IMG/VR virus record: IMGVR_UViG_3300028800_000062
Location: 1-64,000 of that record
Length of the DNA stretch: 64,000 bases
From: a virus
Reading direction: 5' to 3' (one strand)
The notes beneath the pieces were generated by a model. It was not told the origin of the DNA, did not search any database, and worked only from the letters and a program-made list of their open reading frames with translations. A program made the position numbers and the translations under genes. Shown here piece after piece: positions 7,439-13,403 of this stretch. Each line of letters begins with the position of its first letter. Within the stretch, counting starts at the first letter, position 1.

Positions 7439-7702
7439 CTACATCCTGGACAGGAAGTCATTGAAGACAATCGGTTCGGGATTACGAAGCCGGGCTTCCC
7501 GCCGGCGTTCCTCGGCCAGGTTGCGCACCTTCCAGTGCACCCAGCGATCGTCGCCCACATGATGCGCCTCGGAAACCTCGAGCACGCTATCGGTGGGGTG
7601 AAACGCGTAAACGCGCGTCGCCAGGTCGAACAACCAACAGGACAAACGGCGCCGCGGCCGCCTAATTGCCAGCAACAGTATTTCTTTCACTGCTTCCTCC
7701 AA
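7439..7702 (-). CDS. Hypothetical protein, paralogue of 8813..9010
   Basis: Shared IRR..R.L...LFDLA...Y.F.P......E.H.VG...W..W pattern. Confidence 0.65.
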   Translation of the reverse strand: MEEAVKEILLLAIRRPRRRLSCWLFDLATRVYAFHPTDSVLEVSEAHHVGDDRWVHWKVRNLAEERRREARLRNPEPIVFNDFLSRM

Positions 7703-8168
7703 TACGGTCCAACGCCAGGCGCGTGCGAGTCTTCATCAAAAGCTTGCCCATCCAGTTCTCACCGACTGGTGGATCCATCTTGAGGTCGACACCCCAGAAG
7801 CGGTCATTCCACCAGTTACCCTCAGCCAGCTCACGCAGGCCGGTGGCCAGCAGCAGATCCTGAAGCTCCGGATTCTGACCGAATTTCTCTTCGATAATCC
7901 GGCTCATCACATCCAGCTTGATGTCCTCCCAATCAGGACGCAGGCTGATAACAAAGCCTTTATATCCTTTAGGGGAGCCCATCTTCTTCGCCATGCCGGC
8001 CCAAAAAGCGCCGCGAATGACTTCCCTCTGCTGGAGATCCAGGGTCTTAGCGGCCTGGTACAGATGTTCCGCGGTCGGCCAGACCTGGCCACGCCAGAGA
8101 ATCGGCGCCGGATAGAAATTGCTGAGGAAATCGTACGGTCCTCCAAATACATTGATGGGTGTATTCAT
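7662..8168 (-). CDS. NADAR family protein (YbiA/T4 gp30.3-like)
   Basis: FLSNFY, WPTAEHLYQAAK, LRPDWE, KFGQNPEL..LLLATG, EGNWWNDRFWG, GENWMGKLLM. Confidence 0.93.
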   Translation of the reverse strand: MNTPINVFGGPYDFLSNFYPAPILWRGQVWPTAEHLYQAAKTLDLQQREVIRGAFWAGMAKKMGSPKGYKGFVISLRPDWEDIKLDVMSRIIEEKFGQNPELQDLLLATGLRELAEGNWWNDRFWGVDLKMDPPVGENWMGKLLMKTRTRLALDRIGGSSERNTVAGN

Positions 8169-9068: not shown

Positions 9069-9305
9069 CTAGGAATGCTCGTGAAAGCGGCAGATGAAGG
9101 GTGCATGCTGAGCGAGAGACTGTACCCTATTTCCCTGGTCTGTAGAGATTCTCGACACATCCTCATCCGTGTGGAGAACACCCAGCTGAGACCCGTACGC
9201 CGCCGTCGGATAGCCACAATCGACCAGTGGCCCGTGGCGCTCCGGCGAATACTGCCAGAACGTCAGGTGAAATGGGGGCACCAGGCAGCGGCCTATATGT
9301 TGCAT
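9069..9305 (-). CDS. Hypothetical protein
   Basis: ORF track; an opposite-strand ORF from 9075 is an alternative. Confidence 0.4.
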   Translation of the reverse strand: MQHIGRCLVPPFHLTFWQYSPERHGPLVDCGYPTAAYGSQLGVLHTDEDVSRISTDQGNRVQSLAQHAPFICRFHEHS

Positions 9306-9493
9306 AAGCCCTGGCGGACGGTGCCGGCCTCTATGCTATTCACTTTCTGCTTGGAATCGCAGAGAATACAGTGAACAGTAATGCCTATCCAATCATCACG
9401 TTGCAGCTCGCGAGCCTGATCGTAAGAGTTCACGCGCGTCTCGTGCGTATGGCCGCAAACCATGTGCAACAACAAAGGACCAAATCCTGGCAT
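9293..9493 (-). CDS. Small zinc-ribbon protein
   Basis: AAGGAGG RBS; HMVCGH ... CILC. Confidence 0.7.
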   Translation of the reverse strand: MPGFGPLLLHMVCGHTHETRVNSYDQARELQRDDWIGITVHCILCDSKQKVNSIEAGTVRQGLCNI

Positions 9494-9530
9494 AAATGCC
9501 TCCTTTTAGCTTCATTTCGTCGCAAACGCT

Positions 9531-9548
9531 ACCACTACATATAGTGGT
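9531..9548. promoter_or_regulatory. NrdR-box-like palindrome 1
   Basis: ACCACTACATATAGTGGT matches the 16-bp NrdR consensus (about aCAcwAtATaTwGTg). Confidence 0.65.
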
Positions 9549-9701
9549 GCGGTAGAATAGATCCAAGCACCACGGTCGAAATCGGCCGCCGCTAACGATT
9601 TGCTGATAACACAGCACTTACTGCCAAGCGAGAGAGGCGATCTATAGTGGGTCCGGGACCTCCCGGGAGCTTCCGATGAACTGGGCATCGGACAGCTCAT
9701 A

Positions 9702-9719
9702 ACCACTACATCTTGTGGT
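9702..9719. promoter_or_regulatory. NrdR-box-like palindrome 2
   Basis: ACCACTACATCTTGTGGT, 16/18 identical to copy 1. Confidence 0.65.
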
Positions 9720-9756
9720 AGTCCACAGTCCTGTTGCCTTCCACAAGTACGTCGCC

Positions 9757-9960
9757 TCATGAATTCACTTCTCGCTGCGCCTGGCGCCAGGCATGATCCC
9801 GGATCCAATCCACATCCGTCGGCTTCATCCCCAGGGGATTGTCGATCGGATCCCATGGTCCGAGAACCGCCTCGCAGGCAAGCTTGTTTGCACGAAAGAT
9901 CTGGCCAAAGCGGGTCATCAAAGGATCACTGTCCATGACTATTGGCATCCTCCGGTTCAT
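9757..9960 (-). CDS. Hypothetical protein
   Basis: ORF track (start 9960 or 9948). Confidence 0.6.
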   Translation of the reverse strand: MNRRMPIVMDSDPLMTRFGQIFRANKLACEAVLGPWDPIDNPLGMKPTDVDWIRDHAWRQAQREVNS

Positions 9961-10141
9961 AGAACGGATTGGCTGCCGGGCCTTGTTCAGCCAGGTGCAT
10001 GCGCTCGCACAGCCGGTCTAATGCGGCCGACCGCTCCGCGCTCAACCGCGGCCGCGTGCGTTCATAGCAGTCGATGCACAGCCGATTGGCATTGTCGAGC
10101 ATCAACTTCCGACAACTTGCGCACTTATGCGTACTCGTCAT
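9926..10141 (-). CDS. Small zinc-finger protein
   Basis: GAGGAGG RBS; CASC...CIDC. Confidence 0.65.
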   Translation of the reverse strand: MTSTHKCASCRKLMLDNANRLCIDCYERTRPRLSAERSAALDRLCERMHLAEQGPAANPFYEPEDANSHGQ

Positions 10142-10156
10142 CTGCACACCTCCTCT

Positions 10157-10191
10157 AAACAAAACAAGCGCGGGAGCAAACTTCCCCGCGC
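10157..10191 (-). terminator. Intrinsic terminator downstream of the RNAP gene
   Basis: GCGCGGG/CCCGCGC stem followed by TTGTTTTGTTT on - strand. Confidence 0.7.
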
Positions 10192-10211
10192 CATGAGTTA
10201 AGATTCCGGCC

Positions 10212-10421
10212 CTATTGCCCCCCACTCCTTCCCATCCCTCCAACCAGTTCCAACTGGCCGAGGTAGAGACAGGAGCGGCACGGACTACCAGTGCCCACGT
10301 CGGCTCCCGACGTAGCCACAACCGCCGCACATTCCAGAGCGGCCCAGCTCTCCGTGAGCACTGGAGAGGCTGGGCTGCTGTGCACTGCATCCGGTATATA
10401 ACATACCGTTAGTTCGTCCAC
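10212..10421 (-). CDS. Hypothetical protein
   Basis: GTG-start ORF between RNAP gene and terminator. Confidence 0.35.
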   Translation of the reverse strand: MDELTVCYIPDAVHSSPASPVLTESWAALECAAVVATSGADVGTGSPCRSCLYLGQLELVGGMGRSGGQ

Positions 10422-10430
10422 CCCGTCAAC

Positions 10431-13403
10431 CTAACTTGCGATAAGCGCCTCCTCTTCCGCGGCCAACTGCTCAGCCGGCACAACCATACCCTGGTCGGCC
10501 AGCATGCTGAAGCCCGGGATCGCCGGCTCTTGCAGGACAGCCTCGACCGTGACATTCCGGCCGAAATAATCGACGAATGCCGCAATCTGCGTCTTCTTCA
10601 GCCAGCCATAGAGCTGCTGATCGTCCACGCCTTCCGGGTTGTAGACCAATAGGTCCACCCGGACTGCGTCTTCGGTCACACCGGTCTTCTGGTTAAACCA
10701 TTCAACCAGGGAAAGGCGAACAACATCACCGGCCATTTGCCGCCAGGACACGACCATGTCATCATCCGGACTGGCATACTTCTTCGAAAGCCCGTTGACA
10801 ATGATGAAAGGATTTGCTTCACTTCCAATACTTTCCACTTCCAGATCATCCATCTTCATCATTTCTACGTCAGCTTCCTTGCCCGCCGGGGCGGGGAGTT
10901 CCCCGCCCTGTGGGTCGTCAGGGGTCGGTGCGTTCAGGAAACGCAGACCCGTAGCGGATACATCCAAGCCGGCTTCTGCATCAAGCAGCGCCTGCCAGGT
11001 GCGGTCAAACAGTTTGACCATATCGTTGCCGCCGAGAATGCTATCGCTGATGCGAGAGGCATTCATCTTGTCGCCGAACACATAGCGGCGCCGCATAATC
11101 TCTGCGATCGCCGGCACGGCCAGGTCATGATCCACCAGCTCGCCATAAGCTGCGCGCTGTGCATCCGCAAACGCCTGGGCCATGATCTTGCCCTCGAGCT
11201 TGGCTTCGAGAGCCGCGCGCATCTTGGGATTCCCCTCGGTGCGCTCCATGGAGCCGTCGTCAACAGCCGCAGCATTGAACGCCGCCGTCTGCTTTTCGAT
11301 ACCGGACTTCATCTTGTCGCGGAACACCTGAACTGTGGCACTGGCCAGCACGCGCACATCCTGAGAGGAGTGCACATAGGTCAGCCACGCAGGATAAGCC
11401 AAAGCGTCCATAGCCTCTTCAGCCAGGAGCTGTTTATAGGTCTCGATCGACTTCTCGATCTGAACCAGCGCGCGGTCGAGATCCGTCTCTACCGGCGTCA
11501 CATGCGAGCGTACTTCTTCCACTTTGCCATTGATCATCGTGCGGCGAGGCACGCGATCGAGCAACGCGGCGGAGCACTGGGTCAGATTGGCCCAGAAGTC
11601 CGTAATCGCAGCTTCGAACTCCGTGCGGGAGAAGCCCGACACACCAGCCACATGCTTCAGGCTGTCGATAAAGTGCGACTGATTCGCGGTCTGATCGGCA
11701 ATTTGCAGCTTCTCATCGATACCATTGAGATAGTTGTGATTGGCGATCATCATGGCGTTGGACACAGGGCCCAAGCCCATGCCGCTGCTGCCTAGCTGGC
11801 TGACCATCATGCGATGGCCCTGCCGTTTCCAGTTGGTCTGCAAGACCCGTGCAGCGCGGCGCTTCTCGAGCAGACTGGGCCCGCGCGGCGCCTCCACTAC
11901 AGCGTCTTCCTCATCATCATGCAACAGCTTCCCTGGAAAGCCTTGCGCAATCAACGCGGTAACCGATTCCACCACACGAGGATCGTGATGGATCTGAGCG
12001 GGATCGTCCCAATCGGCAGTTCCCATAGTCTCCATACGAGCAGGTAGATTAACAACAGAGAGAAATACAAAGGGACACTGTGTATGGGACATGGGAGCAT
12101 AAGCCTCATGCAGGACACTCACCGCATCAATTGCTTCAGCCCAATGGGCACTGGGCTGGCGGTTCATTACCACCGGGCCCAGATTGCGAACGTTGCTCTC
12201 ACGCATCCCAGGAATGGTGATCTCATTACCGACCAGCACGGCGTTTTCCGGATGGAAGTCACCGTTGCAGTCGAAGGCCGTAAAGTCCGGCATCAAATAG
12301 CGGTTCTGGGTATATGGCAGCGGCACGCGCAGATTGCGCATGTTCACCACGCGATTCCAGAAGAAGCGCTCGAGGCGCCGGCGCATGCAGGGCACAGTCG
12401 TCACGGGACGGCCGTTGCGAACCCAGCGGATCAGAGACCACATATCCTCAACTTCATTGAGGTCATTGGTTGAGTCCAGAGTGTCTTCCACATAGGGAAG
12501 CATCGCCGTAATCCAGCTGAGCATCTTGGATTCGTCGCACATGGCTCCTAAGAACTCATTGAGCGCGATCTCAGCATACTCCGGTAACAGCGCGGCCTGA
12601 TTGAAGTTCGCGACCCATTGCGGATCGCTGAACACCACCTGCGGTGCATGCAGCACTTGCATAATCGCAAAGCGAAAGCGCGAGCCCACGGTGCGGAGCT
12701 GCTTCTTGCCGGCGAACAGTACAAGGTCCCAGGCCAAACCCAGATAAACCAGGTCATTGCCTTTGAACAGCTTCATCATGTCGCAAGTAATGCGAACGCC
12801 GGCACCTGCGGGCAACTCTTCGCCCAACACAATTCCGGTCAAGCGTTGCGAAACAAAACCCATCCCGTCAACGTAAGGGAACACAGCCTTGCTGATCTTG
12901 GGAACGCGCACCCGGATCTCCTGACCACTGTCCAGAGCCACCAGGAAGCCATCCTCACCGATCAACTGAATGATGCGGCCTTCAACAGCCGCCTGATGCG
13001 GCGCAAACTCACGCTTGACGTACTTCTGGCGTTTGTAAACGTCGTTCTCCGACTTCACTACCCATTCGCGGTCGAGCTGGGCGGCCAACTCGTCCGGAGT
13101 CTTCGGAGCCAGCGGATCACCTTCACGGAAGCACACAAAAGTGGCTCCCTCGCCATCCCGCACGGTCACATCAGCAGCCTGCCACCGCACACCTTCACTG
13201 AACTCGCCCTTATAACCTTGATACAGGATATTGAGCGCTACGTCCAACGAACCGGGGACGTTGACTAACATGTAAGGGCTATCGAGCCCGTCGAGCAAGC
13301 GCAACCAGCGGCTGCGTTGCCTGTTGTCAGCGTATGCTTTCCTCACCACGTCATAGACAAGGTGATGCATGCAATTACTAGTCGTAGTCATAGTTATTAC
13401 CAT
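10431..13403 (-). CDS. Single-subunit two-barrel RNA polymerase, cellular-RdRP/YonO-like
   Basis: Ordered motifs DGMGFVS (DGxGxIS), R......FKG, RQP (RxP), GTADWDD (GxDxDGD variant), LGPVSN, IDSLKH (VDxxKt). Confidence 0.85.
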   Translation of the reverse strand: MVITMTTTSNCMHHLVYDVVRKAYADNRQRSRWLRLLDGLDSPYMLVNVPGSLDVALNILYQGYKGEFSEGVRWQAADVTVRDGEGATFVCFREGDPLAPKTPDELAAQLDREWVVKSENDVYKRQKYVKREFAPHQAAVEGRIIQLIGEDGFLVALDSGQEIRVRVPKISKAVFPYVDGMGFVSQRLTGIVLGEELPAGAGVRITCDMMKLFKGNDLVYLGLAWDLVLFAGKKQLRTVGSRFRFAIMQVLHAPQVVFSDPQWVANFNQAALLPEYAEIALNEFLGAMCDESKMLSWITAMLPYVEDTLDSTNDLNEVEDMWSLIRWVRNGRPVTTVPCMRRRLERFFWNRVVNMRNLRVPLPYTQNRYLMPDFTAFDCNGDFHPENAVLVGNEITIPGMRESNVRNLGPVVMNRQPSAHWAEAIDAVSVLHEAYAPMSHTQCPFVFLSVVNLPARMETMGTADWDDPAQIHHDPRVVESVTALIAQGFPGKLLHDDEEDAVVEAPRGPSLLEKRRAARVLQTNWKRQGHRMMVSQLGSSGMGLGPVSNAMMIANHNYLNGIDEKLQIADQTANQSHFIDSLKHVAGVSGFSRTEFEAAITDFWANLTQCSAALLDRVPRRTMINGKVEEVRSHVTPVETDLDRALVQIEKSIETYKQLLAEEAMDALAYPAWLTYVHSSQDVRVLASATVQVFRDKMKSGIEKQTAAFNAAAVDDGSMERTEGNPKMRAALEAKLEGKIMAQAFADAQRAAYGELVDHDLAVPAIAEIMRRRYVFGDKMNASRISDSILGGNDMVKLFDRTWQALLDAEAGLDVSATGLRFLNAPTPDDPQGGELPAPAGKEADVEMMKMDDLEVESIGSEANPFIIVNGLSKKYASPDDDMVVSWRQMAGDVVRLSLVEWFNQKTGVTEDAVRVDLLVYNPEGVDDQQLYGWLKKTQIAAFVDYFGRNVTVEAVLQEPAIPGFSMLADQGMVVPAEQLAAEEEALIAS

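Follow-up and report, generated by a model that had tools for sequence, protein, structure and literature searches.

The stretch of DNA analysed here, hereafter the window, comprises the first 64 kb of a linear IMG/VR virus record of 146,742 bp, whose completeness is ~68% according to CheckV. Genes on the minus strand occupy the region from base 1 to ~16 kb and make up a leftward (early) gene arm, within which the ORF list leaves a putatively regulatory, non-coding gap of 263 bp between two minus-strand genes (positions 9494–9756). For comparison a related 14.6-kb JGI contig (L241) was available, whose putative polymerase is 81% identical to that of the window.

Immediately preceding the boxes, as transcription runs, is a gene (9757–9960, minus strand) for a 67-aa protein with no assigned function, which is 64% identical to the product of L241 9061–9297. 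The first gene after them (9293–9493, minus strand) encodes a 66-aa protein and has an AGGAGG ribosome site at 9499–9504. The 66-aa product carries a GHTHE motif and weakly matches the C-terminal portion of a DNA repair exonuclease of phosphoesterase type (phrog_7339, E = 0.0058), and the ORF may be a gene fragment. This gene is missing from L241, where the next gene at that place is the homologue of window 9069–9305. Among the downstream ORFs scanned, the sole recognisable function is that of the NADAR-domain gene at 7662–8168 (minus strand; PF08719, E = 3.3e-26; phrog_1017), the others being small and without family match, and no link to nucleotide metabolism is evident among them. The NADAR family has been linked to the reversal of DNA ADP-ribosylation.

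Upstream of the boxes by ~200 bp, a minus-strand gene (9926–10390) encodes a zinc-ribbon protein of the CxxC...CxxC kind, which is encoded upstream in the window and in L241 alike; the product has no family match and its cysteine spacing differs from that of NrdR. The first-pass annotation had counted the genes from this zinc ribbon through NADAR as lying downstream of the boxes, which holds for the NADAR gene and fails for the zinc-ribbon gene. Still further upstream in the same arm lies a 990-aa gene for a putative polymerase (10431–13403, minus strand). At 10167–10192 the minus strand has a hairpin with a T-run that resembles a terminator, 3' of the 990-aa gene and inside the ORF called at 9926–10390, so that the true start of the zinc-ribbon gene is probably near 10141 (MTSTHKC...).

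NrdR is the bacterial repressor of ribonucleotide reductase (RNR) genes and senses ATP and dATP, i.e. the levels of DNA precursors. Two NrdR-type boxes lie in the gap. Box 1 (ACCACTACATATAGTGGT, 9531–9548) reads ACCACTATATGTAGTGGT on the minus strand and is the one proximal to the downstream gene, 37 nt before its ATG, while the distal box 2 (ACCACTACATCTTGTGGT, 9702–9719) reads ACCACAAGATGTAGTGGT on the minus strand. The two are 171 bp apart from start to start, in agreement with the first-pass annotation, and the linker between the 16-mers measures 155 bp. With up to three mismatches allowed, the 18-mer pattern is expected 0.11 times in the shuffled window and was seen only at the two box sites; a chance origin of the two boxes is excluded. 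Sites of the box type ACCAC-N8-GTGGT are likewise confined to these two in the whole 146,742-bp record.

The boxes were scored on a weight matrix derived from 60 partner boxes situated 14–17 bp from bacterial pattern matches, which makes the matrix independent of the search pattern; its consensus is ACCACTACATGTAGTGGT. Box 1 attained 21.5 bits and box 2 attained 20.7 bits out of a maximum of 22.5, with the runner-up site in the 146.7-kb record at 12.7 bits and the best sites of 20 shuffled genomes at 12.2 to 16.7 bits, and the pair is thereby statistically exceptional. Mutagenesis has identified C4, A6, A8, T9, T11 and G13 of the 16-bp box as the critical positions for NrdR (PMC13584703), and all six are present in both window boxes. 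The scoring against an NrdR matrix that had been proposed for these palindromes therefore returned near-maximal values, and their supposed NrdR-like identity is well supported at the sequence level by the scores, by the six critical positions and by the occurrence of the 18-mer at bacterial RNR promoters. The possibility that the pair arose as a ACCACTACAT target-site duplication by insertion was rejected, as both copies are full palindromes and both are present (diverged) in L241.

When bacterial genomes were scanned with the exact pattern, taking one genome per species, the 18-mer was found in many phyla. In 31 of 86 bacterial loci the long ORF closest to the box coded for the RNR large subunit, and an RNR-like gene was present in 58 of 120. 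Further neighbours were NrdD, ATP-cone proteins, DnaA and dCTP deaminase, and several matches directly preceded an nrdR-like start codon. The box lies directly upstream of a class II RNR in three loci from Acidobacteriota, and the 18-mer of box 2 recurs letter for letter upstream of class II RNR (nrdJ) in the Acidobacteriota loci L171 and L182. Every one of the five box-bearing Acidobacteriota genomes encodes NrdR itself, above the cut-off (4/4 when the unpublished G004 is left aside). Judged from this genomic context, the 18-mer in bacteria is a genuine NrdR box.

Strong bacterial box pairs were also found 195 and 199 bp apart, and promoters of hosts may likewise have several boxes spread over long distances. 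The strong boxes at these distances of 195–199 bp are located at L236 5182–5464 and L178 2495–2707; in L236 a third box follows 66 bp further, and one box adjoins the start of a 772-aa ORF. As a separate observation, in Clostridia and relatives (L137, L138, L140, L176, L177, L194, L203, L206, L216 and L221), together with the viral loci L063 and L068, the box sits in a common context of ~100 bp (...TTTTGACCC...ACTCAA-box-...CCAAACCACAAT.CGTCATCA...), and this context looks like part of a mobile element or prophage, not an nrd promoter.

The operator rule for NrdR is more exacting than the presence of a box. The NrdR tetramer binds two boxes separated by a linker of 15–16 bp, with 14–17 bp tolerated and a second optimum at 24–27 bp; lone boxes are unbound in vitro, and off-range spacers (12–27 bp were tested) worsen binding by up to ~two orders of magnitude (PMC13584703, PMC12051234). 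Single-box genes, e.g. topA, show no response to nrdR deletion (bioRxiv 10.1101/2025.03.28.645925). At the present locus the linker is 155 bp, as against 15–16 or 24–27 bp, and the matrix scan found no partner box above ~5 bits for either site at linkers of 5–59 bp, by which hidden canonical partner boxes are ruled out over that range. The flanking genes encode small proteins without assigned function, and the location is accordingly not that of an RNR promoter. Profile searches for RNR of classes I, II and III, for the ATP-cone and for NrdR (PF02867, PF13597, PF00268, PF03477, TIGR00244) gave no match in the 146.7-kb record, which is ~68% complete, and the remark that no RNR is encoded nearby thus extends to the entire record. 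Since neither the spacing nor the RNR context agrees with the rule, the locus is not classed as a canonical NrdR operator. Of the initial interpretation as an NrdR operator, the box type stands and the paired architecture does not; the locus is best described, on the evidence of its sequence, as carrying NrdR-type boxes in an architecture and setting different from those of the canonical operator.

Between the two boxes lie further signals. Directly after box 2 in the direction of transcription, the minus strand can form a hairpin (9667–9698) with an interrupted 12-bp stem and a 7-nt loop, whose arms at 9667–9678 and 9686–9698 are those described at the outset. Its folding energy is -16.7 kcal/mol (z = -2.1) in the window and -14.1 kcal/mol (z = -0.2) in L241. 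As an intrinsic terminator the hairpin was rejected: on the minus strand no U-run follows the stem and a terminator scan was negative, so it is not a standard terminator. A 22-nt island (TAAGTGCTGTGTTATCAGCAAA, 9599–9620, minus strand) contains the inverted repeat TGCTG-N6-CAGCA and is a candidate promoter or second operator; the form common to the window and L241 is TAA[G/C]TGCTGTGTTATCAGCAAA.

Several other explanations for signals in the gap were considered and set aside. The island occurs once in the 146-kb record, and no repeat copies of the full box, of the half-site ATGTWGKGGT or of the island were found elsewhere in it; all three being restricted to this locus, a genome-wide phage-polymerase promoter or operator was rejected. 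Searched as a 19-mer in IMG/VR (in the L241 version, one base off that of the window), the island gave 14 matches, all in four unrelated and redundant families and none with boxes nearby, which are therefore regarded as chance matches and not as signs of a common phage element. Rfam, searched at E up to 1, returned no known RNA family in the gap. In the comparison of the window with L241, no conserved sigma70 or sigma54 promoter was found in the gap: a sigma70-like TTGGAT-17-TATATG at box 1 has a -35 element without counterpart in L241, and a TGGCAG close to the island, considered as a sigma54 element, is wrongly spaced for one and missing from L241. The half-site TATAGTGG (9643–9650, plus strand), listed in the first-pass annotation, is indeed present and corresponds to the ~5-bit site of the partner-box scan; because its best covering matrix score is 5.05 bits and it is not kept in L241, it is probably noise and non-functional.

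The comparison with L241 shows which parts of the gap are maintained. Coding DNA is ~79% identical between the two as far as, and including, the 67-aa gene. L241 carries two boxes only, 180 bp apart versus 171 bp in the window: the counterpart of box 1 (9884–9901) scores 15.1 bits and that of box 2 (9704–9721) scores 17.8 bits, and each retains all six key positions. Box 2 is identical at 16 of 18 positions and box 1 at 13 of 18 (13 of 14 in its right-hand part), and the half ATGTWGKGGT on the transcribed strand is the best conserved part of the box. The hairpin is identical at 24 of 32 positions, with three pairs kept via changes on both sides, and the island at 21 of 22. Outside these elements, identity in the gap falls to 35% (208 columns).

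No reading frame accounts for this pattern, and the gap is non-coding. The ORF at 9512–9856 (minus strand) has no family match, and none of the alignment gaps over it in L241 (7, 1, 8, 14 and 1 columns) has a length divisible by three; a 34-aa ORF at 9642–9746 (minus strand) runs in a different frame in L241. Conservation of the reading frame in place of the palindromes had been named as the outcome that would speak against NrdR boxes, and since L241 keeps the key positions of both boxes and not the frame, the comparison favours the palindromes. Between the 67-aa gene and box 2, L241 9295–9655 contains two extra small ORFs (~39 and ~80 aa), the latter with a CxxC...CxC motif, from which the borders of the gap appear to be a hotspot of gene gain and loss with the internal islands kept. 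In the one relative compared, L241, the boxes are, at the level of aligned sequence, selectively conserved together with the hairpin and the island. A further relative, P0003 (ENA), is 58% identical; no more relatives were found in viral_contigs with the putative polymerase, its alignment or the 67-aa protein as queries, and blastn against 'phages' gave no match.

The same box pattern is present on other viral DNA. The exact pattern was found in at least 120 IMG/VR contigs (L001–L120), and none of these listed viral loci has an RNR-like gene, versus the 58 of 120 bacterial loci given above. Their neighbours, among the matches listed, are mostly terminase large or small subunits of several distinct families, portal, head-tail adaptor, protease and scaffold genes. 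The distances between strong boxes peak at the canonical 31–32 bp among the viral loci listed, some of which hold four to eight boxes, and widely spaced strong pairs occur there at 137, 162, 159/180 and 135 bp. Helical phasing of such long-range pairs in other loci was considered and gave no clear signal, the cases being few. NrdR-type boxes thus appear to be common on phage DNA and, among the viral loci listed, not tied to RNR. A full-text literature search for NrdR boxes in phage genomes found no paper on the subject.

Two further observations concern the organisation of these viral boxes. Dense arrays of four to six strong boxes within 150–200 bp, at spacings of 15, 28–32 and 40–45 bp, are located at L008 61–204, L112 672–868, L004 1576–1755 and L102 2683–2800. 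A phage family with a 425-aa terminase (L007, L011, L014, L035 and ~20 other viral loci) has a single box within a longer palindrome (GCAACCAC...GTGGTTGC, then TTGCA-N5-TGCA); the terminase gene follows the box at a distance of ~385 bp, and the upstream flanks vary. For the 21-member terminase-linked family the members were picked by the box itself, so that conservation of the box is not informative there.

The reading that we place first, and to which an even chance is given, is that operators for the NrdR of the host would gate transcription into the downstream early block. The gap at 9494–9756 would be a cis-regulatory module in the leftward early arm, in which two consensus NrdR operators flank the hairpin and the promoter- or operator-like island, immediately ahead of the ribosome site that opens the next block. 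The controlled block would run from 9493 towards base 1 and comprise small genes including NADAR. With ATP and dATP bound, when the dNTP pool is replete, NrdR would place one dimer on each box, and the two dimers would either join as a tetramer by looping out ~150 bp or act as separate roadblocks; either mode would block transcription into the downstream block. A drop in dATP, caused for instance by phage DNA replication or by a dNTP-depletion response of the host, would release NrdR, and the block would be expressed together with the RNR genes of the host. We infer the presence of NrdR in the host and the binding of NrdR to boxes so spaced, as well as the looping or roadblock mode and the direction of control.

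Within this gating proposal the looping mode deserves separate consideration. As the boxes are 16–17 helical turns apart, the usual tetramer could form on them only by looping. The distances of 171 and 180 bp correspond to 16 and 17 turns at 10.6–10.7 bp per turn, not exactly at 10.5, and by our own estimate from these two data points such an agreement has a chance of ~1/5. The more specific version, in which an RNR-less phage heeds the dNTP sensor of its host, a single NrdR tetramer bridges the boxes and loops the island, and the early block is switched on when dATP drops, is offered tentatively and is considered rather unlikely as a whole.

Among the alternatives, it is improbable that the boxes are operators of another protein with NrdR-like specificity, e.g. 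the phage zinc-ribbon protein. The CxxC...CxxC protein, whose gene lies ~200 bp upstream in the window as well as in L241, would be a candidate, the non-canonical spacing would be no obstacle to such a protein, and the strong conservation of the ATGTWGKGGT half on the transcribed strand would fit. However, proteins resembling NrdR or carrying an ATP-cone were not found in the record, the zinc ribbon matches no family and spaces its cysteines differently, and phage regulators usually have several sites whereas only two occur in 146 kb; moreover, the NrdR consensus at every critical position of four boxes in two genomes would have to be a coincidence.

Somewhat more doubtful is the view that the gap marks an operon boundary, where the hairpin ends or processes a transcript, the island is the next promoter and the boxes are relics, either of an nrd promoter captured from a host or of an nrd gene that the phage has lost. 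This would account for a hairpin and island whose conservation equals or exceeds that of the boxes and for the gain and loss of genes around the gap, and the site lies just downstream of the putative polymerase gene block, which is where the early terminator of phage T7 is found. Yet a neutral relic would have decayed to the 35% identity of its surroundings, and six positions survive in both boxes of both genomes; the hairpin lacks a U-run, and the island is unrepeated, unlike the promoter of a phage polymerase.

Least probable of all is the decoy reading raised by the first-pass annotation, whereby boxes on replicating phage DNA soak up NrdR and derepress the host RNR while controlling no phage gene: both boxes are near the ideal consensus, their copy number would rise with replication and no RNR of any class is encoded in the 146.7-kb record, but a decoy would be expected to use a high-affinity canonical pair such as many other phage loci have, an RNR may simply be missing from a ~68% complete record, phage infection derepresses the host NrdR regulon and the dNTP use of phage replication already suffices for this (PMC6755750), and the fixed order of elements, kept in L241, points to local control. 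The succession of box, hairpin, island, box and ribosome site thus favours, as far as an arrangement of elements can, local gene control over a decoy.

The gating of the early block by host NrdR, if correct, would bear on how NrdR is regarded. NrdR has been viewed as dedicated to RNR, and the rule for its operators, a pair of boxes three helical turns apart, was established by experiment only recently. Selected NrdR boxes on the DNA of an RNR-less phage would mean that phages read the dATP/ATP balance of the host for the timing of their genes; the spacing seen here would need DNA looping or the binding of single boxes, neither of which is known for NrdR. If the looping reading were true, the NADAR-containing early block would be on only at the onset of phage replication or during a host dNTP-depletion defence, and the locus would represent the first long-range looping action of NrdR, as one instance of a widespread and hitherto undescribed exploitation of NrdR boxes by phages. 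The viral loci listed suggest a general, apparently unpublished phage strategy.

Comparison with known systems places the locus more precisely. Bacterial RNR operators, such as those of S. coelicolor nrdRJ and nrdAB and of E. coli nrdAB, nrdHIEF and nrdDG (PMC9110341, PMC13584703), have the same 16-bp partial palindrome with the same six positions, and the NrdR proteins of these two species also bind heterologous boxes. There, a pair of boxes with a linker of 15–16 bp, sometimes 24–27 bp, lies over the RNR promoter, whereas the phage locus has two lone boxes, a 155-bp linker, no partners and no RNR gene. Single NrdR boxes outside RNR genes are attributed, in the form in which a recent preprint cites Rodionov and Gelfand (2005), to Shewanella dnaA and Pseudomonas topA (bioRxiv 10.1101/2025.03.28.645925). 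These orphan boxes stand outside the RNR regulon as the phage boxes do, and dnaA cases are found in the bacterial sample of this study as well; however, dnaA and topA have one box per promoter, while the phage has two strong boxes, kept as a pair, at roughly whole-turn spacing.

Repressors that act by looping between promoter-flanking operators offer a second likeness, as exemplified by GalR with OE and OI ~113 bp apart, AraC with O2 and I1, and LacI with O1 and O3. The phage locus resembles them in having two good operators 100–200 bp apart around a central element and, as its presumed regulator, a tetramer of two DNA-binding dimers. NrdR is not known to act by looping. In L. monocytogenes, two NrdR box pairs lie 113 bp apart at nrdAB (PMC13584703). 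The likeness to GalR, AraC and LacI is one of functional analogy, and looping by NrdR is a proposal of the present analysis.

The borrowing of host regulators by phages is well established, with LexA boxes in temperate phages and NtcA and PhoB boxes in cyanophages. In each of these, the site of a host factor is carried on phage DNA and phage genes follow a signal of the host, as is proposed for the early block here. The signal in the present case would be the dATP/ATP balance, read through a repressor that has so far been regarded as specific to RNR.
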